Shown here: positions 2,631 through 37,400 of the stretch, piece after piece
Layout: each line of letters opens with the position of its first letter
Position numbering within the stretch: the stretch's first letter is position 1
DNA from: Convolutriloba macropyga
Lineage: Eukaryota
NCBI RefSeq assembly: GCF_964194025.1
Contig: NC_134478.1
Span: 20,956,001-21,020,000 of the forward strand
Length of the DNA: 64,000 bases
Reading direction: 5' to 3'
Translations under genes and position numbers: made by a program
Notes under the pieces: generated by a model
The model's input: the letters and a program-made list of their open reading frames with translations, nothing else
Database searches by the model: none
What the model was told of the DNA's origin: nothing

Positions 2631-3054
2631 TAATAGTATATTCAGATTATTTTAGTGCAGTAAAAATCCTATACGATGTACTTATTTTATTGTTCTACCT
2701 AATCTTGGAAGACAATTATAAGGAGTCATGTTATGTTCACTTAGTACCCTCAGTTATTCAAGTGTCAATCTGTTCCCGCGTCGGGAAAAATATTGTTTAT
2801 GTGTTGTGACTTTTACTGATCTATATTTATCTAGTTTTCATTCTCTTCATTCATTTTGCATCTTGCGATCAGTTGCCCAATTTACTTTATTTACTTACAA
2901 CTGTATTTATATACTTATCAAGCAAAGTAGATACGCAAAAGATAGGAAATTCGCTGAGCGAATTCTATTTTGAAATTGTGTTGTGCACTCGCCGTGCAAG
3001 ACAACACAACAGATATACTGATAGTGATTTGGACCGCAAATTGAGTACACAACA
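2631..3054 (+). mobile_element. Probable 3' LTR of the gypsy element
   Basis: Follows purine tract AAAAATGGGGAGAAG (~2616-2630) and ends in ...ACAACA. Partner LTR is not in the window, so boundaries are approximate. Confidence 0.45.
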
Positions 3055-3887
3055 TTGATTGTGTACGACAGACGAACAACACAGTACTGCTTATTCCTGA
3101 ACAATTTATGAGACTGATGTTTCCCAAAACATTCAAACGTTGGGGCTGGTTTTCATAACCAAGGAAGGATTAACAAATTATTATTTACTGCTTAGTGAAG
3201 CTACCCTTCTGAGAACTGAGTTGAAGAGACAGGAATTATTTTTAACTTTATTTCTAATCCTGCAACACTTTTGCTGCTTCAGATTTGTTAGAAACTCTAC
3301 TTAGAGTAGCATCATCAAAACTAGACAATGTTTTGTTCTTCCCTTACTGCAAGACTGATCTCCGGCAGATAAAATAAAACCTTTAGATCATTTGAGCGAC
3401 GTTTGCAAATAGAAGTTTAATTGTTGCCTAACAATGAGGCCGACAAAAAGTATCTCCTACTCCAAATTGAAGTCAGCCAACATATGCGGAATGGCTATAA
3501 AATTTTTCCGATTCTGCATCGAACACTTTCATAACCGCGTTACGCAAAATGATGAGTTGCAGTGAAGAACCGGCAGCTACGTAGATGGAAGCTCGAGTAC
3601 CTTGCTTTGATTAGGTCTTTTCAACAAAAATACCCAAAAAGGCAACGCTATTCTATCACAAGTTCTTTAGTGGCCGACAGTTGTATCGCTTCCGCGATGG
3701 GAGGCAACTTAGTCTAGCATTTCCAAATTAAAAATGCCTTCCTCAAATGATCAGCCAAACTATCTATCCTGTTCATAGCCCCGATTCGATAAGAATTTTC
3801 TTTTTCATAGCCCGGAATTGATAAGAAATGCTTAGCAGCCCAAATGAAGGCACGAGTGGAGTGGCTCACATTACCATCAATCTGAGT

Positions 3888-5793
3888 AAAACATAGCCGG
3901 CAGATTGCCGGAAAATAGCCGCGATAGACGCTTGTGGCGTTACATGAATTGAAGGGCTTTTCAAAATAAGGATCTTTTCCGTTTGTGCCCCCTCAGCTTA
4001 GTGGGCGCATATTATTTGCACCCCCCAGATGCACGTGCAATATTTGGGGGGGGGCACAAACGGAAAAGATCCCAAAATTGATATTCGAAATCAAAAACTC
4101 AAGACTCTAATATTCAAGAATTAGGGCATATGTTTGGCACTACTTAGATGCACACTATTGACCTTTAATAAGTAAATGTTCATAAAATTGAAAGTTTCAT
4201 AAGTGAGCTTAGAAGTCATTTTTTTGAGTGAGGTAAGTCATTGAAAAAGTCAATTCAAAGAAGTCACGGTAAGACGAAATGAAAATCTGTTAGACAAAGT
4301 AAAAAACATAGCAGGACAAGTCCTGACGTACAATTCAAAGAATTTTCATTGATTGAACAGGACTATGAATGGATTGGGAAAACCATTTAGAAAAAAATCC
4401 AATCCAAAAAATCGAAAAAACGGAAAAATCAAAGCGCAATTGCCGCATGTGAACAAAAAACCACTAGCGAGAAACCGAATTTTTGTTCGAACACCGTTTT
4501 CTAACTCTACTTCAAATTTAGAGCGAAAAAAATTCACGCCGCAAAACCACTCGCTTTTCCGCTCCACTTCCTGTTTCGGCGTGACCAAAATCACTACTCC
4601 AATTTGACTTCAAAAATCATGAAAATGTGTGAACAGATCTTAAAAAAAATTGCCGGAAGAATTCCGAAAACGACTCGAAGTGAAAATCCATTTAAACGCC
4701 ATCCAACTACTCATCAAACAAAACGTGCCTTCACTAATTTATGATTATCTTGAAACAGAGTCATCAAACAAAAAAGTAAAAACAATAAAATCAAATCTGT
4801 TAAAATATGATAAAAAATCTGATCAAATTTTGTTATAAATTGAGATCCTGAAAAAACTATCTCTGCCAAAATAACTTCATCAAAACAACTAATAATTACA
4901 AAAACCACTTATGTCAATTTTGAAAAAATACTTTAGGCTAAAATTATGAAAATAGCTCTAAAAACAACTTTCACTGAAAAACTGGAAAAAGTTACTAAAT
5001 TTTTTAATATTTCAAAAACAAATAAATCTAACACAAAATTCCCTTCAGCCAATAGGGTATCCAGATGCTCGCAAAACAATAGACAAGTCATAATAGGCAA
5101 AGAAACAAAAAAACGAAAAGCTGCAAATAATTAAGAAAAATAGTTCCAATTTTTGCCATTTTTTCATATTTCTCAACAAAAAAATGATTCTTACCCACAA
5201 AACTGTTACCAATTGTTATCATAAAATTGCTCAAGTATAAGGGGTTTCTTCAATACCCATTTGAGCCAGTAAAACAAAATAATCGTCAAAAAAACGCAAA
5301 AATTAGCCCGAAAATCAGCAAAATACATTAAAAATCTCCGAAATATCATAAAATTCATATGAATTTCCAGAAACCTTCAATTCACTCCCGAAACCAGCCT
5401 AAAATTAAAACAAAATCATAATCGAACCTCTTAACCAAAATAAATAAAAAATGCTTTAAAATGCCGCACGTGAACAAAAAAATTTCGCTCGCTTAGAGAA
5501 AATTTCTTCACACATCAATTTCTCGTTCTTTCAAAAACAGCGGTATGAACAAAAACCACTCTTTTCGCTCCGCTCTTCACTTTTGTTCAGCGCCAAAATC
5601 ACTCCAAATTTTTTCACGCGTTTCATTTTCGGCTTAAAAAATCACTCCAATAAAATTGACTAGAAAAGGGCTTCTCCAATACTCCTCTTCGAGTCGTAAA
5701 AAGACAGCGCACCAAAACAGTTGAAATTCTTTTAATTTTACAAAATTTAGGAGCGCTATAATAGCCGCCTAGAATTGAGGACGCGGCTATTAA
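3888..5793 (-). mobile_element. Helentron-like non-autonomous element (HINE-type), copy A, with nested insert
   Basis: Terminal AAAACATAG + hairpin CCGGCA-gat-TGCCGG. Subterminal inverted repeats ATAGCCGCG (3915-3923) / CGCGGCTAT (5782-5790); extra inverted copy ATAGCCGC at 5761. Confidence 0.6.
3970..4072. mobile_element. 103-bp mini inverted-repeat element
   Basis: Perfect 23-bp inverted repeat GGATCTTTTCCGTTTGTGCCCCC (3970-3992 / 4050-4072); flanks CAAAATAA / CAAAATTG. Confidence 0.6.
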
Positions 5794-10920: not shown

Positions 10921-11200
10921 TCTGCTCCTCAACCGATCACAATCGCTTGCACGACGCACGTTTGCAATAATTGCCTCAAATCGTTGCTCGAGAGCAATTA
11001 AAAGCGAAGCAAACGGAAAAAACATGCGGAAAAAGTCCTGCAAAACAATTTTAAAAAAAGATCATTATATTAAGAACAAAAATTGGAATTTCGAATTCCG
11101 TTAGTTGATAGAATAACGGATATTTTTAAGATAAGAAAGTACGAAATGGGCGCAAAAATTGTCGCATAGGCTGAGAAATAAAGAAATCAAACCAACTTAC

Positions 11201-11639
11201 TAAGTTTGGCCGCCCCTCCAAGAGTATAGTAGTACACAATAACAGCAATGAGCACCATAATGGCACCGAACAGCACGTAGAGCATAATGGCCTCGGCGTC
11301 AAAGGCATCATCAACCTCAATAAAGTTGATAGTCTTGTTCAAAACTGTGTGCATGTACAGGCTCTCAGTCTCGTCATAGTAGTTGGCCTCAATAACAAAG
11401 CCGAAAGGTCGTCCGGCGAACCTCTCCGAGGTCTTGAATACGTAGGAGAAGGTGGCTTCTCGCTCGGAGTCCACAGTTCGATTGAGGAACATGGCTGTGT
11501 AGTTCTGGAGGTAGTAGGAGAAGTCCATGGGGTATCGGAGAGAGGCGTCAATCGTTGCCACTTTGTAACTGTGTTTGTTCTCCCCTGTGTTGCGGAATGA
11601 TATGAGACACGTGATAACTTTACCAGCTGGCAACTCCTC
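11201..11639 (-). CDS. SSR1: TRAP-alpha, coding exon 2 (luminal domain + TM helix)
   Basis: TTTCAG acceptor, then EELPAGKVITCLISFRNTG...ASLRYPMDFSYYLQNYTA...EATFSYVF...FAGRPFG, matching the conserved TRAP-alpha core, then a TM segment. GTAAGT donor at 11200; 439 nt, phase 1. Confidence 0.95.
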
Positions 11640-14479
11640 CTGAAACACATCCACACACACACATTCGAACCCTTACCCCATGAACAAAATTGTTCTCATG
11701 AGTAGCATACATGAACAAAATAATGTGTCTCTGCAGTTATATTAAAATGCAGTAATATTTTTTTACAGGCAGATGTAGGTTAAGAATTTTAATTACTTGG
11801 ATATGATATATTGTGTTAAATATGTAGACAATCAAATACAATAGTTTCGAAAAGAGGCGCAACTATTCGTTAATGAGCTTTCTTTTGAAAACCTTACTCC
11901 AATATTCCGTATGAGCTATATCTTAGTTTATTACCTTAAGCCTTTTTTCTTCATTATATATCCTATGAGTTGCTCTCAGCTTCCATAAATGAATTTAGCC
12001 CGGAAGTTGAAGTTGGCTTACTTTTCACCGTTAACGTTCATAAGTTAAGGTCATTGACATGCAAGTTGACCTATAAATGAGATCGACGAGGTTAACAAAT
12101 TTCTGTTCTTAATGTTAAACCACAAAAAGAGTTCTTCGGCATCCTCCTTGCATTTTATTGTTTTCCTTGCACTTGGTAAAACAGCATAAAAACTCTCAAA
12201 ACTAGTCATTAACATATACATATTTTGCTGTACTCTAAACACAATCCAAACGTACAGTATAATACAAAGAACAATAAAGTGCAAATACTGAGCATGCAAA
12301 CTGAACTTAGTCAGTGGTGCAAAATAGTGACTACTGTTCAAATAAAGCCAGCTCAGTGATCAAACACAAAGCATTGTGAATTCAACAGCTGCTGGTTGGT
12401 TTATCTAAACCACAAAAATTACAAAAACAGCTCTAAGTGTTTTAGTATAACATTTGGTGTTTTAGTTTAACATAGAGAGAACTAAAGTATGGAGTACGAA
12501 TAAACTGTGCGTACTATCAATCTTCTTCGCAGTGGAAAACTCGCAGTCAAGTTGAGTAAAATTTTGTTTTATTCATAGAGAGAAGCTTCAGATAATAACT
12601 GACACGAATGACGCAGATCACGCACCTTTTGTACACGTCACGAGCATTTTGAATATCACCACGGAACTTCTATAGAAATTCAAGCGTAACCATAACTGCC
12701 AATGGTGTCGTTAAGCGAACTTCTACAACAAGCCTCTAAGATGTCCCCCCTATGACCTAAATCCAAATCCTGATGCACTCTCTAGCTGTTTATAATACGT
12801 TTATGTTCAGGCAATTAGAACAAAATTAATAAGACAATGGCAAAAAATTGCAGACCTAATCTATTAAAACTTCGTTCGAGAGCAGCAACTAAACTCAATA
12901 CCTGCCAAAATACGAAAAAATTTTTTGCTCAATCAAAATTCTAACGTCGGTCAGGAAACAAGAGCGCTGATTTCTCAACAACACCTCTTTGGGTCTAATT
13001 GCTTCAAGCCCCAAGGAAATGGGGCTATGAACATTAAACAAGCCCTACTTTTTAATGCCAATGTTTGTCGACCGATATCATTTGTGGGGCATTGAGACAC
13101 AAAAAGGGTATCATTAAAATTTTTCACAATTTCGACCATTTCAATCTTAGTATCACTTTATGAGCATTACATATACAATTCTTTTAACCGCTTAAAACGC
13201 AGTAGTGGGTAAATGGTAAAGTTTTAACAAATTAAGTTGAATTTTAGCAGGTTTGTTGAGTTTTAGCAAGTTAAGTTGAAGTCAAGGCAATTTGAAGTTA
13301 AGCTGGTTTTGAGAACAATAGTTTAAAGGACATTACAAACTTTTGATAATTTGTGCTCATTAATTAAATTAAATCATTTTTGCCACTGAATATCTCAAAT
13401 ATCTCCAACTAGATTTCTGCTAGCCTGTAAATTGGCTGTACGATATATTTGTAAGGAAAGATTTCGTTTTCAAGATTCGTTTCAAAACCACCGCGAATCT
13501 TAGCTTTTCTGACAGTTCTTGTTGTTTGTGCCGGCCTCTGCTTGTACATTTAATTTCAAGTCAGAATTCCCTCAGATTCTAAGTTCTTAGTTCCCCCTTT
13601 TCGTACAATTTTGACGATAAACATTGCTATTCAACACCCCAATATTTAAGTGTCAACAATTTATATCGAGGTTATACTAATTTTTCAATTTTTTATTTAC
13701 TTTCGTTGATTGTATTTCACGACTTGCCCAGTTATGTAATCATATTTTGTTGTCAGTGTTTTCGTGTTGACCAAATGACGTCATGCTCGGTTCAGATCAG
13801 CTTTTATTCATTCATGCAATTTTTGGTTGACCCGCCTGCAAGACTTCCATCTTCAAACTAACTGGAGCACCACGGTTTTTCATTTGCCAGGATGGTGGTT
13901 TGGTCACACGTGATTGATCCTACTGTCAAAATGACCCTTTGTCTCACTGAAGTTGATTTTCGCTAACTTGGGGTTGAGGTCAATTAAGGATATATTACCT
14001 CAATTGAAGGTTCCCTGATTTACAATACACAAGTTTAAATCAATTTGAATTTTGAGACTACAGGTCTGCAAATCAATCTCTGGTATTTTTATGCAATCTG
14101 CCAGCTATTTTTAATTTATTTCAATGTTTATTTTAATGGTTTATCTCTCTTATTTTTTTTTCATTTAGCGAAGAGAGGAGCCCTTTTGATCTTATTCGAA
14201 TGAATTCTTTCAAAGGAGCAAAAATTAGCAGCAAAAACTTGTCACCATAACCCATTAAACAGTACAGATTTTTAATCATCCTGATCGTTATGAATTCAAG
14301 ATATTCTCCGGATATCTTGTCCTTTGCCTGTCGAACAGTGTCCAATGTCAATGCAACTGTCCAGGATTAACAGCCGCATCCTCGGAAATCTCAAACGACT
14401 CACAGTTCTAAATGTACGTTCGCGATAGCTTTTTACTATGTAAATAAAGAATTGAATTGAGAATAAGAATTAATTGCTT

Positions 14480-18080: not shown

Positions 18081-18576
18081 AGCACGAGGTAATGCGAGCA
18101 AGGGTTAATGCTTTTCTTGCTAACCTTAGCCCAAGAACTTAATCAATGACACCAGTTTGCAGGAAAAACATATTTTACTTATTGGTACCGTGAACCTTAC
18201 TACGGAAGGCAACCACTAACAAAGTCACTTTAATCCTTTTTCATGGACGCTGCTTCTGCTTGATGTTTCAGATCACCGTAATATTTCCTAATGATCGTCA
18301 AAGTTTTGATTTCAACTTTCCAATACTGATGAAGCTCTGAATATTGAGAGGTAATTAATTGCGGCTCCTTTTCTTTGGCAGTAGACTATACCACTGATGA
18401 ATACTAATACGTTCATCAGCGTTTAGCGGTTGTCTCGGATCTGACGGGTGCTTTGTGATCGAGTTGTTAATAACGTCGTGCCATAAAATAATTGTTTCAC
18501 CAACCGGGATTTCACCTAGACGATTCTGTATCACTTTGAGTTTCGCTTGGCTTCCTGGATGTAGATTGAGACCCGG

Positions 18577-18663
18577 GACCGCAATAACATTTTTGTCAAA
18601 TAATTGTCGGTTTGTATGAGGCCCGTGACCGCAATAATATTGTCAAATAATTGTCGGTTTGTA
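18577..18663. repeat. Short tandem duplication (~50-bp period)
   Basis: GACCGCAATAA..TTGTCAAATAATTGTCGGTTTGTA occurs twice. Confidence 0.8.
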
Positions 18664-19620: not shown

Positions 19621-19831
19621 TCGCACATATCAAAAATCATAGTGATGCTGATGTTCTATTCAAATACAATCACTCAATGGTCTCTTGGTACGTTGACGAA
19701 ACTTGAAGATTGGAGCGAAAACTAAACAATGGTCCATAACTAAAGCCGAGGAGCCACCCCTCAAAAAAAATAGAAGAGCCGCTTACTTTTTCGAATTTTG
19801 GGCATGAGGTATAAAGAGAAATAAGACTTAC

Positions 19832-20116
19832 ATCAGAATGGTCAACCAAAATATAGCTCATCTCAACGTCTGATGCAGGTCCAACTCTTCCAGTAGCGGT
19901 AGCATCCGTTCCAGTTGAGCCAGTTTCCTCTTTCTTCCCTTCGGTTCCAGGTTCAGGCTGCCCTTCTTCAATTACCTCATCTTCAGTCTCGACGTGAACT
20001 TCAGCATCCGCAGGAGCTTCTTTGTCAGCCGCAACGAACACGCCAAAATTCGTGGCCGAAAAAGCTCCGAAGGTTAAGAGCAGTGCGACGACAAGAATTA
20101 CTTTCGAGATTTTCAT
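19832..20116 (-). CDS. SSR1: TRAP-alpha (signal sequence receptor subunit alpha), coding exon 1
   Basis: ATG at 20116. Hydrophobic signal peptide (MKISKVILVVALLLTFGAFS) then acidic stretch (ETEDEVIEEG), as in TRAP-alpha. Ends ...DHSD|GTAAGT donor at 19831; 285 nt, phase 0. Confidence 0.93.
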
Positions 20117-20438
20117 TTTCTATAAATTGAAGATTCTGGAAATCAGAAAAACTGTATCTGAAATGGTTAGCAAGGATTTAGAAAAATTAATTGCAATTGG
20201 CTCGACAAAAAGATGAACAATCAATTAATTTAATTGGTTTAAAAAAATCAATTATTGCAAAAATTGAAATTATAGATGAATTAAATTTTACATTCTATTA
20301 ATAATTTTTTGCGTACGGTTTAAAACAAAAAGCCCAGATCTAAACTCAATCCTGATTTCAAAAACAAATGTTTTCGAGTTTGCGTTCATCGTAAGGTTAA
20401 AACTGCTTCACAAATTGTTAAGGAAAAATAGGTAAAAT

Positions 20439-23400
20439 CACTGCGTTGCTTGCGATTGCCACATGCACTTGACACCAGCATGCACTGGCTTGACACAAGT
20501 TGCTATCAACGGCATCGCCGAACTTGGAATGAACGCTATGCTTTTTTGCAACAAATGCGTGGAGAAAAACGAACGCGAGACCTTCATACGGTGCAGAACG
20601 AGTGGTAAACTGTAATAAAAACTTGAGCAGTTCAACTTCGAGGCGAAAATGGAACAGCTAAAGACGAGTTTGACCGAGTTAATAGAAACTAAAGTTGAAG
20701 AAGCGATGAAAACCACGTCCGCGAACGTTGAAGACACCTATGCAAAAGTAGTTGCTAGGAGCATTCCCAAAAAGAATGAGACAAGCAATTCGAAAAACGA
20801 CGACAAATATGACGATCACAACATCAAGAAGAGTTTCCGAATCCACGGCATCCCCGAAGATGTCGAAAATCACGTGGTGAGAACCTTGTCCACACAACTG
20901 AAAAAAATAACGATGTTCTTAAGACTATTGACGTCCAACCTCAGATAGTGGGAATGAAGAGACTCGGAAAATTTAGCAAGGAACGTGCGAAACCAAGAAC
21001 ACTTCTGGTTACCGTATCAACGGAACACGAAACCAGAATGATCCTAGCAAAAAGCTTTGAAAATCGAGACAAACTCGTGAACGAAAATTTTTATCTCACG
21101 TATGCCTTAACTAAAGAAGCGCTGAAACAAAGTCTCTGCCTCAAACGCGGGAGAGAGCTATTCAATGGCGTTATGCCTCGAGAGGAACTGAAGATAAGAA
21201 ACTTTGAGTTATTTAACAGTAACAACAGGGTGGATCTTAAGTCGAACGACTTTGTAGGTCCTGAATCAAGCTCACGACTATACCACATGAATGTTTTGCA
21301 GATCATCGCACGAAACCTGCTGAATTACGAAGGACGCTTCCTTCTATCAAATGCTATCAGCTTATGCCAGCCTGCCGTGATTTGTATCTATGAAACATGG
21401 GTCAATAACAATATAATCGATTCCGAATTACTGTTTAGTGACTACTTAATCTTTCGCTCAGATGGAAAATCCACCGAAGACAAGAATCCATATGGCGGCA
21501 CATTCATTGCTATCGAAAATGCCCTCAACCGTCGTCGATTGGAATTGGATGACGTCGACAATTGTGCTATCTTCGAAATTCAAGTAAACAAGAGCAAAGT
21601 ATTTATATTCTCCTTCTACAACCCCCCAAAGACCAGCCCCTATCAATACTCAATCGAAGGCTTTGAGAAAATTTTATCTTGGTCCCAAAAAACTGCATAG
21701 TCTTCATCTGTGGAGACTTGAACTTCTCCAATACGAATTGGATGAACTGGACCAGTACTGACTCTGAAGAAAATTCAATACTTGAACTCTTCGAAAACAG
21801 ACTCTTCCGTCAATCGATTGACTTCCCAACCTGTAGCAAGAACGTTCACCGAAATTGCAACGTGTTTTCAAAAAATACAGATGCTTTTACGAAAGTTTTC
21901 AACTGTTCTGACCACATTGGGATCAGTAGCACAATCGAATTACCGCATATAGTTCAAAATAGTACCAGAGAATTGTATTGGAGTTTTGGTTCAGCTGATT
22001 TTGAAAAAATAGCCAGTTAGATGGAACAAACTCCCATCCTGCCAACATGTTTCATTAGCACTGTCAACTTCTATGAAGAACTCGAAGAATACCTGGCGAA
22101 CCTCATACGCAGGAATGTCCCATCGAGAACTAGGCACCGTCAATCTCTCCCTCCCTGGATCATACCAAGCACGTCACATCTGTTACAAAAATTAGAGACC
22201 CAAAAAAGAGGCTTGTTTTGAGACCTACAAGCTATCGGAAAACCTTCGTAGCTAAACTCCAAAACTTGATATCTGAACTGATTGAACAAGATTGTAAAGA
22301 ATATCAGAATTGCTTGCTAGGATCACGAGCAACCGGACTGATCTTTAAGCATCTCAAAAGTCTGACAAAGGACTCAAACTTTCCATCTGAAATGGAGTAC
22401 GACTGCAAAACTGCATATACAAGCCAAAACCAGGCCTCTCTTTTTAATCTTTTCTTCAAATCAGTGTTCTCCGCCGAAGAACCTTTCAGAATCGAAGATA
22501 TTAAAGTTGAGAATCCAACGCTGACAAATTTCAGCATCTCCAAAGCCAATATCAAGTCCATCCTTCTAGAAGTAGATATAACAAAGACCCGAGGCCTCAA
22601 TGCCATCCCGCCAATCTTGTACCAGCGAACGTCCGAGCAGATGAGTTCAACACTTCACAAAGTTTTCAAAAACATCAAGCGACTAGAAAGATTGCCCAAG
22701 AAGTGGAAAGTAGCCGCAGTAAGTCCCATCTACAAAAAGGCGACAGGAAACTGATGAACAACTATCGCGGAATATTCTTCCTTAATATAGACAGCAAATG
22801 CTTTGAGCAATGCATGTATGAGCCTTTCTACAATCATTTTGTTGATCATCAGCACGGTTTTGTTCGCAAAAGGTCGACATTCAGCAACATGATAAAAATT
22901 ATTCAAAGAGAGTGCATCAGTCACTGGAGTGCAACAAGGAAGACAATGCAGTCGCTTTTTACTCCGACTTCTCAAAGGCGTTTGAACGCGTGCCGCGCTG
23001 TCCACTACTAGAAAAGTGTGCTTCAATTGGAGTCGTTGGTTGCTTCCTCGAAATTCTCCATGATTACCTGTCTGGAAGGGAACAGTTTGTTCGAATGAAT
23101 GGTTGTTCCTCTGCAACTCTCGAAGATACAAGCGGTGTCCCACAGGGCTCCCTGCTCGGGCCCCTACTAATTTGCATCTTCATCAACGACCTACCTGACT
23201 TGTTGAATTTCAGCGAACCATTCATCTTTGCAGACGGCCTAAAGCTCCTTTTCACAGGAAAATCCGACTGGCAAATTCATGAAGACCCGAACAGCATTCA
23301 GCACTGGGTGAAGACTAACAAAATGGATCTGGCAATTGAAAAGTGCGCTGCACTAAAAATCCACCACCACTCCAGAGATCTGATGTTAGGCACAAGCCAA

Positions 23401-24124
23401 CTGCACAGCGCTGACTCCATCAACGATCTTGGTATTTTTGTAACTAAAGACATGACCTGGTCTCTACACTTCTCCGAAAGACTCAAGAAAGCCAACAGAG
23501 CTCTTTACCTGCTCCAAAGAAACGATTCAACGAATGTCAATGTGTCTGTCAAACTCGGATTTTATAAATCTTTTCTTCTGCCAATACTGCTCTACGGAAT
23601 GAACTGCGTACGGTTGAGCCGTGGTTCAACTAGAGATTTAGAGAGCTTTCAAAAACGTGCCTTGAACTGGGTCTGCTATGAATCCAATCGAAGCTACCTC
23701 CAACGGCAACGCCTCATCAACGTACTACCACTTCCACTCTTCATGCAGTGCAATGACATTCTGCTCATGTCCAAACTACTTGTTGAAGGAGAACATAACA
23801 TCACATTCCGACTTGCAACCATGAATCTGGTGAGTCCACAATGATTTTCAAGCTAAACAAGTGCAAGAAAGAAAAAACTCGTGGAGAATTTGAATACCGG
23901 ACATGCAGAATCATAAACAGAATAAACGAAAAAATCCAGTTTGCCAATCCTCTCGGTCTAAAATCGCGAATACTCAGACTGAAGTGGAAGTTTGTCGACA
24001 ACAGATTCTCTGATTCCAACCCTTGCACATGGCCATTTGGACATCGTTCTAATCAGAAGTTACGTGAGAAATCCCTCTGGTGTCAAACCCCAGGAAGCCA
24101 CAACAACAACAACAACAGCAACAA
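20439..24124 (+). mobile_element. Near full-length CR1/L2-type LINE (ORF1 + EN-RT ORF2, frameshifted)
   Basis: ORF1 starts within a PHD-like finger and has FRIHGIPE. EN: ETW, YGG, YNPP, GDLNF, SDH. RT: NYRGI, QHGF, DFSKAFERV, GVPQGSLLGP, FADG. (AAC)n tail at ~24101-24124. Confidence 0.93.
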
Positions 24125-24309
24125 ATTAAGAAATGCCCCTCCTCAATATTGACCGGTTCGGGGCCCTCCCAGCACTACGTCCTCATATAGCATTTCATAT
24201 TGCTTAAATCTATCATTAAAATGATAATATATACAAACATCAGCTGAGAAGTAAAAAAAGACAGATAGCATTAGAAAACAAACAAAAAATGACAAAAGCA
24301 GATGAGTCA

Positions 24310-25590
24310 AACTAACAGCCTCCCTCCGTCAACCACAGCTCCTATCAAGGCTTCTACAATTTCGCGCCGCCTTGACCCACGAATGCAGATGATTGAACTC
24401 CTCAGGAAAGCAAAACTGATTTTTGTCCTTAAATATGATATGTTATCAGTGTAGCTGTCCTCTTTTCGCGCAGAGAGCTTTGATGCCAGTTGTTTCAGCG
24501 CTTTTGAAGCTGATGGGCCAGCTCCACCATGGCCTGCAAAGACAAGCGGAAAAAATGTTGCCTTCTCAACCTGTTATTCTTTGTTCATATTTGTTCTTTT
24601 TAATAGATGCATGGTACTTGTAGGCTTCTCTACTGCTTTCAGGGCAACTTTTTGTTGAACCTCGATTCCCAAAGTCCGTTGGCCTTGGTATCTAATCTTG
24701 CATCACCATCAGTTGTCGTTGATTTAAGAGCAAAGGATTCCTCTTGCAACGGCTGAAGATGAGGTTCGATTTCGAAATCATGACAGACATCACCTAATAA
24801 TATTGCAATGGAATCGCGGAGTTCATTATGTCTCATGTATACGATCCTCTTTTCGGACGGTGAAGGGCATGTGCAACAGTGAAGTTTTCATTGCATGCGC
24901 ATAGTGATGGCATCTTCACTGGGTCCTAGCCATAGCGAAGGGCAATGCCATCACGAAACTCGCTTTTCGTTAGGTCAAAGTGATATCTTTTCATTGGCAT
25001 AGCGTTCAACCAGCTTGATGTACCCTTTTCACTAGCTGAGTCAAGTGGGCAAATCTTTTTATTATTCAATTCGCTCTTAATTCTCTTCCACTTTGATTTG
25101 ATAGCTAGCTCTTTCTTCTTTTTTTTCAGGTATGATTTTTTGTTGCTTTAGTTTGACTTCGGACAGAGATATGGTTAAGGGACTTGACAGTTGAACTGAT
25201 CGTTTTTATTCCTTAAGGCGGTCTTCAGGTTTAAGGATGTTCAGGCTACCCTCCCTTCTCCGCAACGAAAATATATCCCTGTATTTTGGATTGTAGGCGG
25301 GATTCTTTAACAGATTAGGTAATAGCTCATCGTTGATTGTTTTCGCACATTCTTTTAAAAGATGTTCAATATTGGTTATTGTACGTGCTAGAAAAGTCAA
25401 TTTGTGCTGGCCCAATGAAGGGAACGATTTTAAAAAACTTTGAGGTGAAATTTTGCCATGAGCGGCCAGCTTTGTCAACAACAATTTCTGTGGTTTTAGT
25501 GATCTTTCTACAAGTTTTTTCTGCATTATCAGAACCTATTGCACTACCAAGTACTCTACAATCGTCACCTGTTTCGAGTTTGTGGTGAAC
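24310..25590 (-). mobile_element. CRE-like non-LTR retrotransposon 3' fragment (restriction-like endonuclease)
   Basis: SSWLNAMP...EFRDGIALRYG, C-x-C...HAL knuckle, RHNELRD, EPHLQPL, ARLD..ANGLW. Confidence 0.78.
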
Positions 25591-25929
25591 AAAAATCTGC
25601 TGTGCTTTTCAAATGTTAAAGTACAAAATGTAGATGTATTTACATTTGTCTGAGACAACAATTTGAAAAATCCTATGGAAAATCTAAAAAAAATTGAACC
25701 GAAAATTTTCATATACAAAATTTAGCTTTTTTACAACTTCATATTCACGTCTGTTATCATTTCATTTAAAAAACTTTCCTTTTCGGGATTGTTCCATTTT
25801 AATGGCATTGTTTTATTATTCCTAGAGTAATTCAGGTTTTTGTCCTAACCCTCCGCGTCCTTGTTGTGGGTGTGTTGCAAATTTCGTTTTGCCAAAATAA
25901 TTTTAGCCCCGTAATCCGGTCAAAAATAT

Positions 25930-28300
25930 GATTTGAACAAATATTTTAGCTGGAGTTCCCACCCCCGATAACCTTAACGCGTGTTTAGCCCAGGCTTCAA
26001 CTTGCTGAGATATATATAGCTTCAAAGGTAGTCAATTTGTACTGTGCGACGTGCATCCAGAAATTTCTATTCAGTGCTACTCGTGGAAACACAATATTTA
26101 GCAAGGTGTTGACCCATATATGAATCCTTCTTTTGTGGTCCTCATATCCGAGTGGTAACAAACCGGTTTGTCTGCCCACATAGATGGATAGTCTTTTAGA
26201 TTTTATTTTATATGCAACTAGAGGCTTCATGTTTTTATCGAAAAATGATTTTCGGGTGGGAGAAATGACTATATTGTCACGTTTTGAATACCATTTGCTA
26301 GTCGCATAGATTTTCAATGATTTGCTCAAACAATTATGTGTATAGTTGCCTCTATACTTTTAAATGTTAGTTTTTCATGACATATGGTTTTTTGATGTTC
26401 TTTTGATTGTATTTTCAATTGATCTTTACCAACAGTTATAATCTTGTCTCGGACCATTAATCTGGATACTGATTTTGTTCCCATCATCCTTGTTCTTTGC
26501 AAGTGCCTGATCGAAAGCCATCCAACTAGTTGTCGCCTTTAATATTTGTGAAGCGTTTTTTGAACGCAGTTTTTCTTATGCTGAAGCGGTGTAAAGCTGC
26601 TAATATTCAGTTTTCTTCCTGTGTTAGTTGGGTTTTGAAACCAAAGACAGCTAATTGTCCTATCCATGCTCACATTTACGTTGATATCAAAAGCCAAATT
26701 TACTTCGTCGTTCCTTTTCTTTATTTTAAATTGCAGGTACTCGGGCATTGGAGCTGCAAATGCAGCAATCAACATCAAGTGTTTCGTACCGGTCTGGGTC
26801 ACCACTAACTGTTCAAACAAAGCCAGCTACAAAATGTTGAAAAGTTTGTTCAATTTTCGCGCATCCTCCCCCGCTGGTTGTTGCTACAGGATATACAAGT
26901 CCCAACAACTTCCTGTATAATGGCATAGGTCTTTTTTAGCATTTGGCATGAAAACAGTTTCTGCATAAGCAATATTCTGCTCCATTTCCTCAGAAAAACA
27001 CTTTTCGTGTCACATTTACATAGACTTTCACTGAGCTCTTGTTTATATAGTGATGCGTCAAACTTTTTCATCAACAATTTGACTAGTGTTACAGCCAATG
27101 AGCCACCCATAGCTAGGCCAACTGATTTCACAAAGCAGATGCTGTGAACGCTGGAGCCAGGGTTCTTGAGTACAACTCCCTTGTAACAATTTCTTTAGCT
27201 TCTCCAAGCGGCACATTGGTACACAACATTGTCGAAAGAAATTAACTCCAAATTTTCTCTGGTATCTTGAGTAATGGTTTCAGTGTTCGAGCTTGATTGG
27301 GTTTCGAAAAAGTGTTTCAAACATCTGTTTAAATTTGCTACAAGGTATTAAAAGTGCAGTACAGGATGGAGAGTGTAGTTTTGTGCATTTTTGCTAAACC
27401 ATGATGCCTGTTTAGTTGTGAACTAGTTTCTTTCATTATTTGATATATTTTTTACTGATTTCCGCGGGGTTCATCAATTGCTGGAAGCTTTCATTTTTCT
27501 GTTAATCAATATTTATCACAGTTTCAACGTTTTGGTTCTTGATGGTTTTGAACTGATCAGAATTAAAGCAAATCCGCAAGTTTTCTTCTGTACGTTGATA
27601 TTGTCATCACGCAGAGTCAGCAACCTCTGTCAGACATTGTCGCAAGCCAATCCTTAGCTTTTAGATGACCTGGTACTAATATCACCCCTCTGTGCACCAG
27701 AGTTACGCTTAGCTTTTGCATACCATTTTGCGGACACTTCAAGCTTTTAGAGATTCTTTATCTTCTTTTGTTGATCTTGCTCAATTGAATCTTGATTGAA
27801 CTTGTCTCTGACAGAGTGCTCTGTTTCGAAAGATAAGACTGTAAGTAAAAACTTTGGAAATTCACTTCTATCCATTATCACAAAATTACTATGAGTGCAG
27901 CTCCGCAACGTTCTGTCTTGTCACGCTGAGAGTTCATCAAACTTTCCATTTAGACTTATTTCAAGTATTGCGAAGTGATTGCTCATATCTTGCCTAATGC
28001 AGCTAACATTCGGTCGCCTCAGTTCTGGTCTCAGATTTTCCCTAAAGTTACTCTTTTTCCAATCATGTTTCCTCTGTACAGTTTACGGCGGTTACTCAGA
28101 AAAAATTTCCCTCCCAGCATCAAAAAATCCTTAATGACGTTACTGTTAGTGTTGTTTTGAAGATTTAATTCGACAATAACAGATTAATTGTGTCTTTTCA
28201 AAATGTTAAAGGCCTTGTAGTGGAGATTTCCAACGGTAAGCTCACACAGTCAAACCTAGAGTAATACATATGAGATGATTTTTAATCAGAACTGCACTTA
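25930..28300 (-). mobile_element. Degenerate Penelope-like element (RT + GIY-YIG)
   Basis: GLAMGGSLAV (RT motif B), LQF...LAFDINV, PLQHKKN, VAYKI...IYVG..T (GIY-YIG) and terminal EAIYI. Confidence 0.8.
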
Positions 28301-29481
28301 CAAGTCGTCTGCCGGTAGCCATTTTTAAAGCTCGTGAATCACATTTTTTTAATTACAACATCTTCTCTCTTTCTGGTGGCCAAACTCAACAATTCCTTAT
28401 TTTGATTCCAGCAAGAATTCTGTAAGTTTTTTCTGGTTGGCATCAATTTTTGTAACGGAACTGATGGTTCTGAATCTGATTAAAAAATTTCAAACAATCT
28501 GATGAAGCTAGCTGATAGAATTACAACTGTTATTCAAAAAAGGTTTGCCATAAAAATACCCCTGCGAGGTGAAAACTCTGAAAGAATACAATCTTTAAAC
28601 GATCTTCTCAACCATAGGACGGACGTGAGCTGGCAATTTTGCAACTCAAATTGATTGTCTGAAAATGTAATTGGTACCCAAAAAACTAGAAATTGAATCA
28701 AACTCAGCTACAACGAAATCGACAACCTGAAATTTTACTTAAAGGAAAGGCATACAATTTGTACAATGCAGAACAACAAAATTAAAAAAAAACCGTCGAT
28801 TAATTAAGTCCCATAGTACTAGAAATTGCAATTGTGGTTACTTCTGTTGATAAATAGAGTGTTTTCCTTCTTCTCTGTTTTCTCTGATTGACCTTAGGGT
28901 TAAATAGATCAAGAAGGAAAAACTTCTTGTTTTACTTTTGTTTGCTATCACTGATCTTCAGATTACAAAGATTTTAAGAAAATTTTGTCGTTCCTACCTA
29001 TTCATCAGTTTCCCCTCATTGAACTTCAGGTTACCCAGAGTTTAGGAATATAATAAGACTCCTACCTCTTGACTTTGTTCGAAGTGACCTTTAGGCTACA
29101 CAGAATTCGAATAGAAACTTAGGTCTTGCTCGTTCTTAACTTTGCTCGCAGTGACCCTCAAGTTACACAGATTTAAAGAAAACAATAAGTTTACCGTCTA
29201 CTCTTTACTTTGCTCGCAGAGGCCTTCAGTTTACACAAACAATCAAAATCTAAGGCATTAACTAAAAAGCAAATAATTTCAATGACGTCTAAACCCAATA
29301 ACAATATGCTGGTCCCCAAAAACAGTAACAGCAAATCAAAAGATCAGAAAACTAGAATTTCTTGTGCAACTTCTTCGAGCATAATGGGCAGAAACAAATT
29401 TTCTGTCAGAAAACATTTTGCTAACAAATCGAAGGTTATGTTTTCGATAAAAGCTCTATCAGAATCTAAAAAAACTGCTCC

Positions 29482-29482
29482 A

Positions 29483-29554
<72 letters not shown>
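29482..29554. repeat. (TA)n microsatellite
   Basis: ~36 dinucleotide units with one CA interruption. Confidence 0.97.
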
Positions 29555-29557
<3 letters not shown>

Positions 29558-29559
29558 CG

Positions 29560-30800
29560 CTGGAAAAAAATAAGATGGATGTTGAATTAAATCTTTTATA
29601 ATTACGGCTCTTGATGAGCAACTCAAAAATCTTGTCAAAACAACCATAACAACCGTTCAGAAAACACAAAATTTGATCCTAATGCACACAGCATATGAAT
29701 TCATTTGACACATCCATCTCAAGTCGGCAAGTCGCTTGAAAGACTCGAAGTTCCACGATAGATCAAAATTATCAGCCCTAAGCTATTTTTAACAAAGACA
29801 AAAACAAAAGAAAACAAAATTGAAATAAAAGGTGTGAACTGATTAAAACGAAATGGATCCCAGTTTTTCATTTCATCGGCATCTTGAATATGAATAGAAA
29901 GAAGCAAAGAGGCTGACGCATGAGTTAAAACTCAAAATGTCAGCAAGTGAACCAGGAATAAAAAGATTGGCTACTCCAAAGAGTATAAACATAATCAACT
30001 TCATTGCTCAAAACCTGCTTGATCTAAACAGAGAAGTAATTTCGCTAATAGTCAAATAAATTGCAATGATGACATAGTACGTTTAGCAGAAACATGAAAA
30101 ACTAATCAGGGTATTGAGACGTTTTTTCTAACTTCATATTTTTTACAGAAAACAATAAGAAAATAACTGATCTAAAAATGGAAAGTGGAGGATTTCTAAT
30201 TGCTGTAAAATCATCTTCTAAAAAAGAATTTGTTGCCAATGTTTTTTAGCTATGATGACTTCATTGTTGATACAATTTTTGTTCCATTGTCTTCGTTTTT
30301 AGTCTGCTGTATCTACAATGTGCCAGAAAAATGCAAATACTGGTGGTCAGGAAGTGATGTGAAAAATCTTCAGGAAATGTTAAAGCACCTAATTTGCACA
30401 CTAATTCAAAAACCGTAACAGGAAACAGGAGTTGAAAATAAAATAGAGAAATTTTGTGGGCGGACATGTACTTAACAAAGGAATGCCGAGAATTGCTTCT
30501 ATATCAATCTCTCAATTGTTGATCCAAGTCGGCTAGAACTTTTTCTATGCAGCAATCGCGACATAGTTCTCAGTTGCCATTATGGTTTTTATCTGCATAA
30601 AAGCCATAGTATCAATGACATTATGTGCTCTGACAATTTTAAAAACTTCATTCAACTAAATCTCTGAATTGATGCACCAAAAGTAAAGACAATTCCCTTA
30701 ATGGTTTTGATTGGAAAGAATTTATTAACCACATAACAAGTGATCCTTTCAAACATTTTTGCTGTAGCAATGTTGGTTGCTGTTTCAAGATTTTCTACAC
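29560..30800 (+). mobile_element. Decayed CR1-type LINE fragment (ORF1 end / endonuclease)
   Basis: Remnants LAET, GGFLIAVK, CIYNVP..KYWWS parallel the EN domain at 16640-17065. Confidence 0.6.
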
Positions 30801-33800
30801 CTAACGACGTCTTCAGCACGGTTTCTTTTTCTTGTTTTAGGACAATTGATAGAAAATTGTGAAACTCTTGTTCAAAAAAACTTCGTTCGTTCTGAGGAGC
30901 AAGAAGCCTAAAAAACCAGAAATTATGTCATTGTTAATGAATTGTTTAAAAATTTTACTTGAAAATTAATGCTTAATTTTGTCTTTTCAGTTTTGAATGA
31001 TATAATGACCTTTTACTGGAGACTGCCTATGGCAATGTTTCAGAGTCATGCCTTGCATGTTATCCTTTAGATATCGTACGTTCAAAACTGCACCCACCAG
31101 CCATCTACTGGCAGCCAATTCACAAGCTCAGGAGTAGATTTTGGCAATTTCAATAACCTCAATATTCCTGGTGGCAAAGCTCAACACTTTCTCAAAATTA
31201 TCCCACTCAAAGATCTACGCAAATTTGGTTTTTTTCTGTCGATAACGATTCGAGTAACGTCACTGACGGTTCTGAATCTGATTAAAAAAATTTCATACGA
31301 TCTGAAAAAGCTAGCTAATAGACTCGCAACTGTGGTCCTGAAAACATTTGCCAAATTAGCGCCGCTGCGAGGTCAAAACTTTGCAAGAGTTCAATCCATG
31401 ATCAATTTATGCAAACCAAAGACGGACATCAGTTCGAACTTTTGCAGCTCAAACAAGTTTTTTTAAAATAAATGATACATGAAATTTAGAGAAGAAATAA
31501 ATCTCAACTACAACAAAATCTACAACCTGAAAACTTACCTGAAAGCATGCAAACTGTACAATCCAGAATTTCGAAAGAAAAAGATTGAGCAATTTTGTGC
31601 CATATTAGTGGGAATTGATGCTCTAGTCCCTTCAGTTGATAAACAGAGTACTATTCCCTCTTCTTCTTTCCCTCTGAGTGACTTTCGGGCTACATATAGA
31701 TCAAGAAGGAAATCAATTTTTTGTACTCTCATTTGCTCTGAATGACCCTTAGGTTACATAGAGAGAAAGAAAATTTTAAGGTTCCTGCATACTCTCTAGT
31801 TGTCCCACAGTGACCTTGACTTAAAAAAAGAGTTTGAGAAAATATTAAGAGGTCCCTGCCAACTCTTTACTTTTCTCGCAGCGAATTTCAATTTCACATA
31901 GCTCAAAAAAATACTACGGTTCCGGTGAACTCTTTACGTTGCTCGCGGTGTCCATTCGGTTACAGAGTGTTAAAAAAATCAAGGTTCCTTCCTGCCTGCC
32001 CCTTATTTTGTTCTCGCTGACCATCAAGATACACAAAGACATACAATTAAAATCAAAGCCATTATGTGAAAATTAACAAATTCAATAAGAATAAAACCCA
32101 ACGAAAATACACCAGTCGCCAAAAAAGTAACAGAAAAAAAACCATCAAAATTTTTGTGTGCATCAATAAAAATAAAACCCAACAAACACACGCCAATCTC
32201 CAAAAAAGTAACAAGAAAAAAACAAACAAAAATTTTGTTTGCATCTTTTTCAAGTTTAGCAGAATTTTTCTCAATAAAATTAAGACTAAAATCTGATTGT
32301 ACTAATTTCAACAAGAGTTGTATCGACGTCCTAATTAAATAAGATAAAAACCTACTGAAAACATGAAAGAATTGAGCTGGGAAAGACATAATATGTCAGC
32401 TAAAATTGAAACTTTTGATAAAACAGCTCTCAATGAGCAATTCAAGGAACACCAAAAAAACTACATTTTTCCGTGTAAAGAAGAGAAAATTAACATATCT
32501 CTGGATATTGTGCAAAAAGAATATAAGTTTCTACATTTCGTTAAATTAGTTGGAGCTCGCAATACAGAAAAAATGGCAAATTTTTAGTCGAGAACTCTTA
32601 TAATTAGAATGAGGGGAATACATGAGTCAAAAAGCAAGCAAGCTGCTGAAGGATTACTAGAGGACCTCTAAAACGTAAAGCAAATAATCGATAATCTTAA
32701 CTTTGAGGACAAAAAATGATAAAACAATTTACTTAAAGAAAAGGCATACAATTTTTACAAGGCAGAACAACAAAATTTAAAAACCGTCGAATAATTAAGT
32801 CCCATAGTACTGGAGATTGCAATTGTGGTAACTTCTATTGATAAATAGAGTGTTTTCCTTCTTCTCTGTATTCTCTGATTGACCTTCGGGTTATATAGAT
32901 TAAGAAGGAAATACTTCATGTTTTACATTTGTTTGCTATCACTGACCTTCAGATTACAAAGATTTTAAGAAATTTTTGTCGTTCCTGCCTATTCATCAGT
33001 GTCCCCTCATTGAACTTCAAGTTACCCAGAGTGTAGGAATATATTAAGATTCCTACCTCTTCACTTTGTGTCCTTTGTGTCCTTTTTTACTTCGAAGTGT
33101 CCTTTAGGCTACACAGAGTTCGAATATAAACTTAGGTCTTGCCCACCTTTAACTTTGCTCGCAGTGACCTTCAAGTTACACAGATTTAAAGAGAACACTA
33201 CGTTTACCGTTTACTCTTTACTTTGCTCGCAGAGGCCTTCAGTTTACACAAACAATCAAAATCTAAGGCATTAAATAAAAAGCAAATAATTTCATTGACG
33301 TCTAAACCCAATAACCTCAATCTTCCTGGTGACAAAGCTCAACACTTTCTCAAAATTATCCCACTCAAAGATCTACGAAAATTTGTTTTTTTTTCTGTCG
33401 ATAACGATTTGAGTAACGTCACTGACAGTTTTGAATCTAATTAAAAAAAATTTCAAACGATCTGAAAAAGCTAGCTAATAGACACGCAACAATGGCCCTG
33501 AAAACATTTCCCAAAATAATACCCCTGCGAGGTCACAAATTTGCAAGAGTTCAATCCATAATCGATTTTTGCAAAACAAAGACGGACATCAGTTCGAACT
33601 TTTGCAGCTCAGACAAGATTTTTTTAAAAATAAACGATACATGAAATTTAGAGATGAAATGAATCTCAACTACAACAAAATCTACAGCTTGAAAACTTAC
33701 CTGAAGGCATACAAACTGTACCATCCAGAATTTCGAAAGAAAACGATTGAGCAATTTTGTGCCATATTAGTGGGAATTGATGCTCTAGTCCCTTCAATTG

Positions 33801-34499
33801 ATAAACAGAGTACTATTCCCTCTTCTTCTTTCCCTCTGAGTGACTTTTGGGCTACATATAGATCAAGAAGGAAATCATTTTTTTGTACATTTTTTTGCTC
33901 TGAATGACCCTGAGGTTACATAAAGAGAAAGGAAATTTTAAGGTTCCTGCACACTTTCTAGTTGTCCCACAGTGACCTTGAATTAAAAAAAAAGAGTTTG
34001 AGAATATTTTAAGAGGTCCCTGCCAACTCTTTACTTTTCTCGCAGTGAACTTCAAATTCACATAGATCAAAAAAATACTACGGATCCGGACAACTCTTTA
34101 CGTTGCTCGCAGTGTCCGCTCGGTAACAGAGTGTTAAAAAACTATCAAGGTTCCTTCCTGCCTACCCCTTATTTTGTTCTTGCTGACCATCAAGATACAC
34201 AAAGACATACAATTAAAATCAAACCCACTACGTGAAAATTAACAACTTCAATAAAAATAAAACCCAACGAAAATACACCAGTCGCCAAAAAAGTAACAGA
34301 AAAAGACGATCAAAATTTTTGTGTGCATCAACAAAAATAAAACCCAACAAAATATCCAAAAAAGTAACAAGAAAAAAAACAAACAAAAATTTCGTTTGCA
34401 TCTTTTTCAAATTTTGCAGAATTTTTCGCAAAAAAGTAAAGACTAAAATCTGATTGTACTAATTTCCACAAGAGTTGTATCGACGTCCTAATTAAATAA

Positions 34500-37400
34500 G
34501 ATAAAAACCTACTGTAAGCATGTAAGAATTGAGCTGGGAAAGACATAATATGTCAGCTAAAATTGAAACTTTTGATAAAACAGCTCTCAATGAACAATTC
34601 AAAGAACACCAAAAAACTACATTTTTCCGTGTAAAGTAGAGCAAATTAACATATCTCTGGATATTGTGCAAAAAGAATATAAGTTTCTACATTTCGTTAA
34701 AATTGTTGGAGCTCGCAACACAGAAAAAAATGGCAAATTTTTAATCGAGAACTCTTATAATTAGAATGTGGGGAATACATGAGTCAAAAAGCAAGCAAGC
34801 TGCTGAAAGATTACTAGAGGACCTCTAAAACGTAAAGCAAATAATCGAGCATCTTAACTTGTAGGACTTGGATGCACAATGCAGAAAAACAAAGAGAAAG
34901 TAATTCTTGTACACAAAGCAAGCGAAATGAGTAGAAACCTCAAACTCAAATACGCAAGTTGCTTGAAGGACTATAAGTACAGTGGTATAAGTACATCGAA
35001 ATATATCATTTGTGAAATGCCTAATGGAGACGCTATAGGAAAACAAAAACTTTATTAAAGAGGTGAATTAAAGACAAAAACAAAATAGGTCCAATGTTTT
35101 TACAAAGTGAACACCTTGAACTTGAGTGAAGGATGGTGATGCTTGAATTTTACACCAAATGTCAGTGAGGGAAACCAGGCGAGTTAAGACTGACTACTGC
35201 AAAGATGCACAAACATACCCACCTTCACTGATCAAAGTCTGCTAGATCTAAACAGACAAACAAAATTTTCTAAAATTCTATCAATTTGCAGTTATCACAT
35301 AGCTTGCAAAACATGGTTAACTACTGAGATCGGTCTTGTGGTTTGTTCTATCTTCAAATTTTTTGCTTGAAAGGTAAGAGTACAACTGATCTGAAAACTA
35401 AACATGGGGAGTAATAAGTGCTGTAAAACAATCGCTTAAACGTGAAACCCGGATAGTGCTTTATTGCCAAGATAACTTCCTCTTTGTTAGAATTTTAATT
35501 TTGTTTTTTTTTCTTTTTTAGTGTTCTGTATCTACAGTGCTTTTGAACAATGCAACCACTGGTGGTCAGTAAAAGACTACGGAAGTCTTCTTGAAAACTT
35601 ATAAGCACTTATTTTGCACACTAATTCAATAACCGTAGTAAGAGTCGAAATTAAATTACCTAATTATCGTGTCCTCAACAAGGAAATACGAGGATTTTCT
35701 TCTATATCACAATAAAAAACAATCTCTCAATTTTTGATGCAAGTCAGATAGATGTCCTCTTATGCTACAATCCGGTCATAGTTTGCGGTTGTCATAATTT
35801 TGAGCGGTAAAAAACCACAGAAATGATAATAAACCGTGCTCCGATCATCTTTGAGTCTTTTTTGGACTAAATTTCCAAAAAGATGCACAAAATTTTTGAA
35901 AAATCGAAAAAACTCTTCTTGAATTATACTGGTTAGAAATATTTTTATAACAACTTTTTACATAATATTTTCAAACTTTATTGCTACAGTAATGTTGATT
36001 TCGTTCTAGAACAATTGTACACAGCTATGAAACAATTTAAGACCAATCAATCCGGTTGTCACCAAAATTTCCGGCTAGTTATCAATCATAGTTCTGAGAT
36101 GACACACCCCATATGACAGGAAAAGATAAAGCCACAAATATTTATGAACCAACAAAAAAGAAAACCAGAAAAAGTAGTACTTTATCTATTAAAGCTGATG
36201 ATTCCTAATAATCACTAGCAAGGTATCCTATCACATATTGGAAACTAATTTAATAAAATGATGTTTTACGAGGGAATCATATCTGATATAACATGCTATT
36301 GACCGACCCTTAAGTCAATTACCAGTCCAATAAGTCTTAAACCGCATATACAAAAAACTGAGGAAAATTATTTTTTCAAAATGAAATTTACGCACTTTCA
36401 AGACTCAATTTTTGTTTTTAATTGTTTGGTTATCAAAAAAGCCGATTCACAACATTACAGTTGATCTCTTTTTAATTGTGCAATATTTTAAAATGAATCA
36501 TTCAAAGAAAAAACTATTCTGTATCTTAATTTAGCGAAACTTTTTAAAACCGTACGAAATAACGATTTGATATAAAAAACTTCAGAAAATCGGTGTCCGG
36601 GGAAAGATAATTGAGCCAATTTCTAAAAAACGGGCTAAAAATTTGAAAAACAAAAATAATGTTTTTGGTTTAGTAGAGGTCTCACAAGATCAAATACTCG
36701 GACCTCTTTTGGTCATCACAATTAAGAATGATTGGTTTGAACAATTTGACGATATCAATGATTTTCATATGCAGATGGTATGAAACTAATAAGTGACAAG
36801 CAGGATGATACAGAAACGCGGGTTTAAAAAATTTCAATTCTTATAAAGGAACTTGTAATGAATTTTTAATACAGCAAAACCGACCTGCTAATGGTTAGGG
36901 GTAAGATAGGGGCATCTATAGATCACCATCTGCTAGATAAAGACGCAATTTTGTGCTCCAATTTTAAGCAATTTTTTCTCGGAAAAACTGCGCGTTCAGG
37001 TATAAAAGGGGATATAAAAAGTGCATTCAAACTCAATTTAACGTTTCTCCAAAACTTGCAGCAGAAATCAAAGCTAAACATTTCTCTCGGTTACGTTGTG
37101 CCAATAAATACCTACTGCTCCTTCAGGTATAAAAGGGGGTATAAAAAGTGCATTCAAACTCAATTTAACGCTTCTGCAAAACTTTCAGCAGAAATCAAAG
37201 CTAAACATTTCTCTCGGTTACGTTGTGCCAATAAATACCTACTGCTCCCAGAAATGGTTCCAAACAAGTGGTAAATAAAAATTTTGAAATGCTAGAAAAC
37301 TGCTTTAACACGGAGTTCAAACGGAAAATGGAATTATAAATGGCGCCTCTTTACTCAAATATTACCCTGTCACAGTCTTTATATTGAAGTGCACGACTAT

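Follow-up and report, generated by a model that had tools for sequence, protein, structure and literature searches.

We show here that a clade of Penelope-like elements (PLEs) encodes a PHD finger within the catalytic domain of its reverse transcriptase (RT), inserted between motif B and the YxDD of motif C. The feature is real and conserved, and apparently it is undescribed both at this site and in this clade: no published PHD finger between motifs B and C of a PLE, or in this clade, was found in the openly accessible literature searched. By its sequence the finger is of the Pygopus/LINE-ORF1 type. The best explanation, to which we assign a probability of about 0.5, is that such a finger was gained once and in frame, and that it would tether the element's enzyme to nucleosomes carrying methylated H3K4.

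The window, by which we mean the whole 64,000-nucleotide stretch of Convolutriloba macropyga DNA analysed here, holds a decayed and 5'-truncated PLE copy on the minus strand at 25603..28182, running from about codon 35 of the RT-endonuclease (RT-EN) ORF into the 3' UTR (blastn match 28089-25603). A DNA alignment with the intact copy L066 covers 28182 to about 25600, with 74% identity over 2575 aligned columns, and no ORF1 match adjoining the copy was found. All parts lie on the minus strand. Motif B (GLAMG) is intact at 27105..27119, its codons mapping to G457-G461 of the intact protein P0001. It is followed by a frameshift-broken remnant of the PHD finger, V505 to C546, at 26886..27001, the intact equivalent of which is Pfam PF00628. 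Codon mapping places motif C at 26822..26833. The C-terminal GIY-YIG endonuclease region is decayed and lies at 25941..26225, both limits being approximate (I787-Y788 map to 26185-26180; the intact equivalent is PF01541 at 774-851). The 3' UTR/pseudo-LTR occupies 25603..25940, where the hammerhead-like motif known from intact copies has decayed.

An earlier note, made from the letters of the window, had proposed a PHD-like finger with two frameshifts directly after motif B. The peptides it quoted are found in minus-strand translations of the window, the two frameshifts correspond to deletions of 26 nt and 10 nt within the insert in the alignment to L066, and the YxDD is decayed as described, YVDD having become FVAG (26833-26822). 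However, LCKCD, which had been taken as the first zinc-ligand CxxC, aligns to a linker that reads FSRCD in the intact copy (27009..27023, minus strand; alignment to L066 and codon mapping), and the true pair, C498/C501, is deleted just downstream of it. The pattern that had been read in this copy is thus genuine in five of eight ligands (C517, H522, C525, C543 and C546) and coincidental in its first CxxC; C514 is replaced by Tyr, W520 by Cys and W541 by Gly. The motif-B frame of the window gave no PHD match against Pfam, and the PHD segment of the window scores -0.7 bits (iE 0.46) against the PHD profile of the clade. This segment alone is not above chance; the proof of the insert comes from intact relatives. 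The window copy is dead. It is part of an inverted block of 11 kb or more (24169..35652, no strand assigned) that exists twice on this contig as a segmental duplication. The second block (L135), at a distance of about 110 kb, is about 90% identical (93% in the DNA search of the genome) and has most lesions in common; the duplication took place after the death of the copy.

Intact relatives are present in the same genome. A DNA search of its 1.18 Gb, in which the best 40 of 548 candidates were scored, recovered the window itself, its twin and copies of about 66% identity that span the insert, and the family forms a ladder of successively older copies. Among the 56 matches listed, stop-free frames occur in 13 copies of family A (869 codons) and two of family B (885 codons), the latter being 58% identical to family A and carrying the same finger. 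RT motif B, PHD finger, YVDD and GIY-YIG follow one another in one unbroken frame, which is the continuous ORF that the earlier note had suggested looking for. In P0001 (868 aa, from L020) Pfam places RVT_1 at 334-482, the PHD finger at 498-546 (PF00628, 26.8 bits against a cut-off of 24) and GIY-YIG at 774-851, with RYVDD at 563-567; the endonuclease is C-terminal and not N-terminal as in Chlamys or Naiad. Pfam detects the PHD finger in 11 of 12 ORF2 proteins, five of them above the cut-off. A phmmer search of PDB with the whole protein gave no match. A full copy measures about 3.9 kb. Its pseudo-LTR is followed by ORF1 (about 218 aa) and the RT-EN ORF, and its 3' UTR ends at a constant position. 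At the 5' start, 104-453 bp of the 3' end are joined to the body in nine of the 12 copies examined, the other three being truncated or rearranged, and read depth climbs toward the 3' end of the element.

In an AlphaFold2 model (115 sequences; mean pLDDT 91, pTM 0.85) the insert follows the motif-B helix (463-474) and precedes the strand entering YVDD (561-564), with pLDDT of 68-91 in the insert blocks and 75-91 in the PHD blocks. The finger is predicted to fold as a unit of its own, leaving a TERT-like RT intact. The best matches in the fold search are TERTs (E 4e-7; Z 15.2, rmsd 4.3, 382 aligned), and residues 773-857 have I-TevI as best match. No PHD chain was among the matches listed for the whole-model searches, where RT matches fill the lists. 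The clade shows that a telomerase-related RT can accommodate a folded domain of 60-90 residues in the loop just ahead of its catalytic YxDD, and this tolerance bears on RT evolution and on the sites at which reader domains can be fused to RTs.

The finger is not confined to this genome. It is present, at the same site, in 26 of the 57 matches from the first protein search and in 10 of the best 150 representatives. Among 38 metagenome loci, 23 contained both motifs and one the finger (L178, an independent contig). Four finger-bearing proteins probably come from other genomes, because the best candidates scored in the own genome match them at only about 46-58%. The insert could in principle be a one-off nested fragment or a chance Cys pattern in a decayed copy, in line with the window segment alone not exceeding chance and with the partly coincidental pattern read there. 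The 15 stop-free full-length frames, the contig L178 and the database proteins with the finger in the same place refute this, and we regard its probability as negligible.

In the first protein search, motif B and YxDD are 95-121 aa apart in proteins that carry the finger and 33-46 aa apart in those that lack it; a short linker at this place had been taken as the PLE norm. The sister group lacks the PHD finger and has a span of 33 aa. In trees computed with the insert removed, the 16 finger-bearing rows among 151 form one clade (SH 99), and in a chosen subset of 41 rows all 17 PHD rows do so (UFBoot 100 / SH-aLRT 99); rows without both motifs, too short, near-duplicate or visibly decayed were omitted. 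No loss of the finger was seen among the 17 rows of the PHD clade, whose terminal branches reach 0.53 changes per site. One gain with no sampled loss fits these trees.

Selection has maintained the finger. Its pN/pS is 0.25, 0.23 and 0.32 in the three pairs of families A, B and C, compared with 0.31-0.40 for RT and thumb, 0.34 for the endonuclease and 0.60-1.55 for the flanking linkers; only pN/pS is quoted because synonymous sites are saturated between these families. By this measure the finger is under purifying selection like the RT, while the linkers drift. Within the lineage, the widely shared changes in the finger number six nonsynonymous and four synonymous, a small count that is at most suggestive. 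The C4HC3 pattern is kept in 19 of 20 families, the exceptions noted being Gln for His in one family and His for the last Cys in one, and in 10 of 19 the final two ligands stand closer together, as CxC. The objection that the Cys/His spacing might not be conserved therefore falls away, and the earlier suggestion of a distinct lineage holds, as the insert marks one clade with purifying selection on the finger.

By its motifs the element is a Penelope/Poseidon-type PLE; the trees contain no named clade references. All 11 PHD-clade proteins compared have a CxxC between the GIY and YIG equivalents together with two His (CCHH), and all 11 lack a CX2-5CxxC finger in the RT-EN linker. FDKG is the first DKG match in nine of the 11; in the other two the regular expression caught another DK first. 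There is no insertion-in-fingers domain (IFD), the spacing between motifs A and B being 62-63 aa versus 62-65 aa in PHD-less relatives. These are the features that the accessible part of the literature gives for the Penelope/Poseidon clade, namely a C-terminal endonuclease with CCHH, DKG, no linker finger and no IFD (PMC8557442). As far as that description goes, the likeness comprises an RT followed by a C-terminal GIY-YIG, a CxxC in its core with two downstream His, pseudo-LTRs and 5' truncation. The present clade is set apart by 62-88 additional residues that separate motif B from motif C and include the PHD finger, by the presence of ORF1 upstream, and by GPKH in place of GxKF/Y.

PHD insertions as such have been published in PLEs. 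In the accessible text, five families of Chlamys elements from Chlamydomonas carry a PHD finger, located between RT2a and RT3(A) in three families and within the endonuclease in two (Craig et al., 2021, PMC8557442), and in the portion of its supplement available all five mentions of PHD are Chlamys rows. In both groups of PLEs the finger has been inserted into the one protein that unites RT and EN. In contrast to the clade described here, however, the Chlamys endonuclease is, on that account, N-terminal and lacks CCHH, and its PHD fingers do not lie between motifs B and C; the two are presumably independent gains. The earlier belief that the architecture was uncharacterised therefore stands for this site and clade, for which no report was found in the literature searched, where Chlamys was the only relevant case, but not for PHD capture by PLEs in general. 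Our finding is a variant of a known theme, the capture of PHD fingers by retrotransposons including PLEs, and the Chlamys case beside it suggests that PLEs have acquired such fingers more than once, independently.

Where the finger came from is suggested by profile scores. Among 27 PHD fingers scored in the own genome, a set that does not include the host Pygopus gene, those of LINE ORF1 type reach 35-46 bits against the clade profile and those of host genes at most 32. Because the LINE ORF1-type fingers score best in the genome, an ORF1 of the CR1/L2 type is the likely donor; a host gene is a possible donor as well. A candidate for the donor type is a young LINE family (L132:4756-5631 and 2101-4752) with an N-terminal PHD finger in ORF1 and an APE-RT ORF2. 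PHD and esterase domains in the ORF1 of CR1/L2-type LINEs were reportedly noted by Kapitonov and Jurka in 2003. They are also mentioned in the accessible text of a later study (Schneider et al., 2013, PMC3905857), and esterase ORF1s are known in some PLEs according to the parts available (PMC3905857, PMC5408684). The PHD subtype is the same in the LINE ORF1 fingers of this genome, the best scorers, and in the PLE finger, and the PLE's own ORF1, probably SGNH-like, may be compared with the esterases. A difference is that the PHD finger of the LINEs sits in ORF1p, that of the PLE inside the polymerase.

In PDB the best sequence match of the clade's PHD profile is the PHD finger of Pygo2/Pygo1 (E 1e-8). 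In Pygo1, the pocket for K4me2 is walled by W366, Y341 and D352 with V350 and A356 at its base, and mutants of W366, V350 or A356 have destroyed or strongly reduced binding, according to the accessible text (PMC2726290). The equivalent of W366 is Trp in all 20 PLE families, against 10 of 27 other PHD fingers sampled in the own genome; that of V350 is Val in 18 of 19 families by spacing, and that of A356 is small in 19 of 19. The remaining pocket positions vary: Tyr or Phe stands at the place of Y341 in 4/19, the E360 position is acidic in 10/19, and the D352 position is Asp in 2/19 and aromatic in 8/19, where the aromatic residue could complete a cage. Loop 1 is basic (net positive) in 16 of 19 families, replacing the acidic loop of Pygo, and neutral or acidic in three (P0084, P0019 and P0129); the whole finger has a net charge of +5 to +10 in eight of 19. 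Measured against Pygopus as far as it is described in the available text (Fiedler et al., 2008, PMC2726290), the finger thus shares the C4HC3 spacing, the long loop 2 and the V350/A356/W366 equivalents, but differs in the poorly kept Y341, D352 and E360, in its basic loop 1 and in the CxC last pair. Histone binding is likely on these residues, even though a basic surface should disfavour the basic H3 tail, and the finger may act as the chromatin reader that had been proposed. In the mechanism that we propose, a single in-frame gain would have placed a PHD finger of the Pygopus/LINE-ORF1 type between motifs B and C of the RT in a Penelope/Poseidon-type clade. The conserved Val/small/Trp pocket would take methyl-lysine, and the finger would bind methylated H3K4 and so tether the RT-endonuclease to nucleosomes during insertion. 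Gain of the finger might then raise integration efficiency or bias integration sites to H3K4-methylated chromatin. Only tentatively do we extend this to a finger that was captured from a LINE ORF1 once, was never lost, and from within the RT palm couples TPRT to marked nucleosomes.

In RT structures the B-C loop faces away from the template cleft. This speaks against a finger repurposed for nucleic acid, that is for element RNA or for target or nucleosomal DNA, where it might aid template holding or processivity. Fusion to a polymerase, the charge of the finger and the basic loop 1 would suit such a role, but the three families with a neutral or acidic loop 1 would not, and what is conserved is the Trp, the Val and the small residue rather than charge; we consider the idea unlikely. 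Rather unlikely, too, is that the finger binds a protein other than H3, for example a cofactor supplied by the host, some methylated protein that is not a histone, or what the element's ORF1 encodes. The nearest solved relatives do use a second surface for partners, as the available descriptions of Pygo with BCL9 HD1 indicate; the PDB matches include an MLL1 PHD3-Cyp33 construct, and the model retains the loop-2 helix (H530-534). The conserved positions, however, lie on the K4 pocket, and the loop-2 sequence differs between families. Finally, the finger might be a tolerated passenger, conserved only since an unfolded insert would wreck the RT. Such a passenger would account for the kept zinc ligands and core residues and would agree with the functional PHD-less sister families and with a linker length that varies by about 26 aa. 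It is nevertheless improbable: none of the 17 rows has lost the finger, although deleting it in frame would lead back to the condition of the sister group, and the pocket Trp is invariant here even though the fold can do without it, 17 of 27 other PHD fingers lacking this residue. At odds of about one in two, methyl-H3K4 tethering thus ranks above the protein-partner, nucleic-acid and passenger readings. A point against any need for tethering is that the sister PLEs spread without a finger.

Insertion sites give little additional guidance. The 3' flanks of 39 young copies have a GC content of 0.35 versus 0.37 for the window and a CpG o/e of 0.93 versus 0.80, and several of them are inside other repeats. 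No target sequence was common to the 39 flanks, and they gave no sign of promoter-like targeting, flank composition being a weak proxy for it. A complex prediction of the P0001 PHD finger (484-560) with the unmodified H3 tail of the own genome, run without alignment or controls, gave 0.24 against a mark of 0.34 and is counted neither way. A young family-A copy (L068, C2:76363895-76369468) lies within the 3' end of another PLE family, and several other family 3' flanks start with PLE-like or other repeat sequence.

Chromoviruses of the Ty3/Gypsy type carry a chromodomain on their integrase, so that the enzyme of integration bears a module of the histone-reader type. If methyl-H3K4 tethering is true, a chromatin-reading Penelope clade would be the PLE counterpart of chromovirus targeting. 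A reader-type module on an integration enzyme is common to both; element class, domain and position differ, and targeting by the PLE is hypothetical. The clade bears on how PLEs choose insertion sites and on the role of transposon-borne PHD fingers, and with its young intact copies, PHD-less sister and both acidic and basic finger variants it offers a clean natural test.

The upstream ORF1 of intact copies (L069:814-1470, L061:821-1426) encodes about 200-218 aa, is 51% identical between families and has a basic C-terminal tail. Its fold is probably SGNH-like: the model (pLDDT 64) has the SGNH domain of OatA as best match (Z 8.3, rmsd 3.3, 132 aligned), tied with a response regulator and a GDSL lipase at 7.7. 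Foldseek returned nothing significant for this model, and the sequence had no usable match in Pfam, ESM Atlas or PDB. The alignment has visible candidate Ser, Gly, Asn and His blocks, which may be the S-G-N-H blocks of an SGNH/GDSL hydrolase. A canonical-looking 5' splice donor is present at the ORF1 stop in both families (L069:1465-1480, GAG/GTATGT; L061:1415-1430, GTG/GTAAGT). ORF1 and ORF2 share a frame in family A, with a single TGA between them, and are out of frame in family B. Three families, namely A, B and a third one present in L068, have a conserved hammerhead-like motif of the form CUGACGA-hairpin-GAAA in the pseudo-LTR. Its hairpin is preceded by one additional base and has a 5-nt loop that varies; the Rfam search for a hammerhead ribozyme, a pseudo-LTR feature of EN+ PLEs, gave no match for the element.

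Elsewhere in the window, 11187-11672 and 19670-20119 (minus strand) are exons of a host TRAP-alpha gene, the first matching Pfam PF03896 and the second being a signal-peptide exon by its look, with no Pfam match; the PLE copy lies about 5.5 kb upstream. Further PLE fragments, comprising ORF1-like, pseudo-LTR and ORF2 N-terminal pieces, are found at 18400-18621, 20361-20421 and 30780-30960, respectively. A decayed LINE with an RT (Pfam RVT_1) occupies 20619-24152 on the plus strand, and a Copia-like LTR retrotransposon with integrase and GAG-pre-integrase lies at 55292-59077 on the minus strand. In the genome, small contigs (L102-L107, L109-L113 and L124-L129) with 53-64% GC, against 35-46% in the large ones, contain frames reaching about 2,860 aa in which the PHD finger is of another type, and these may be mobile elements belonging to a symbiont or a contaminant.
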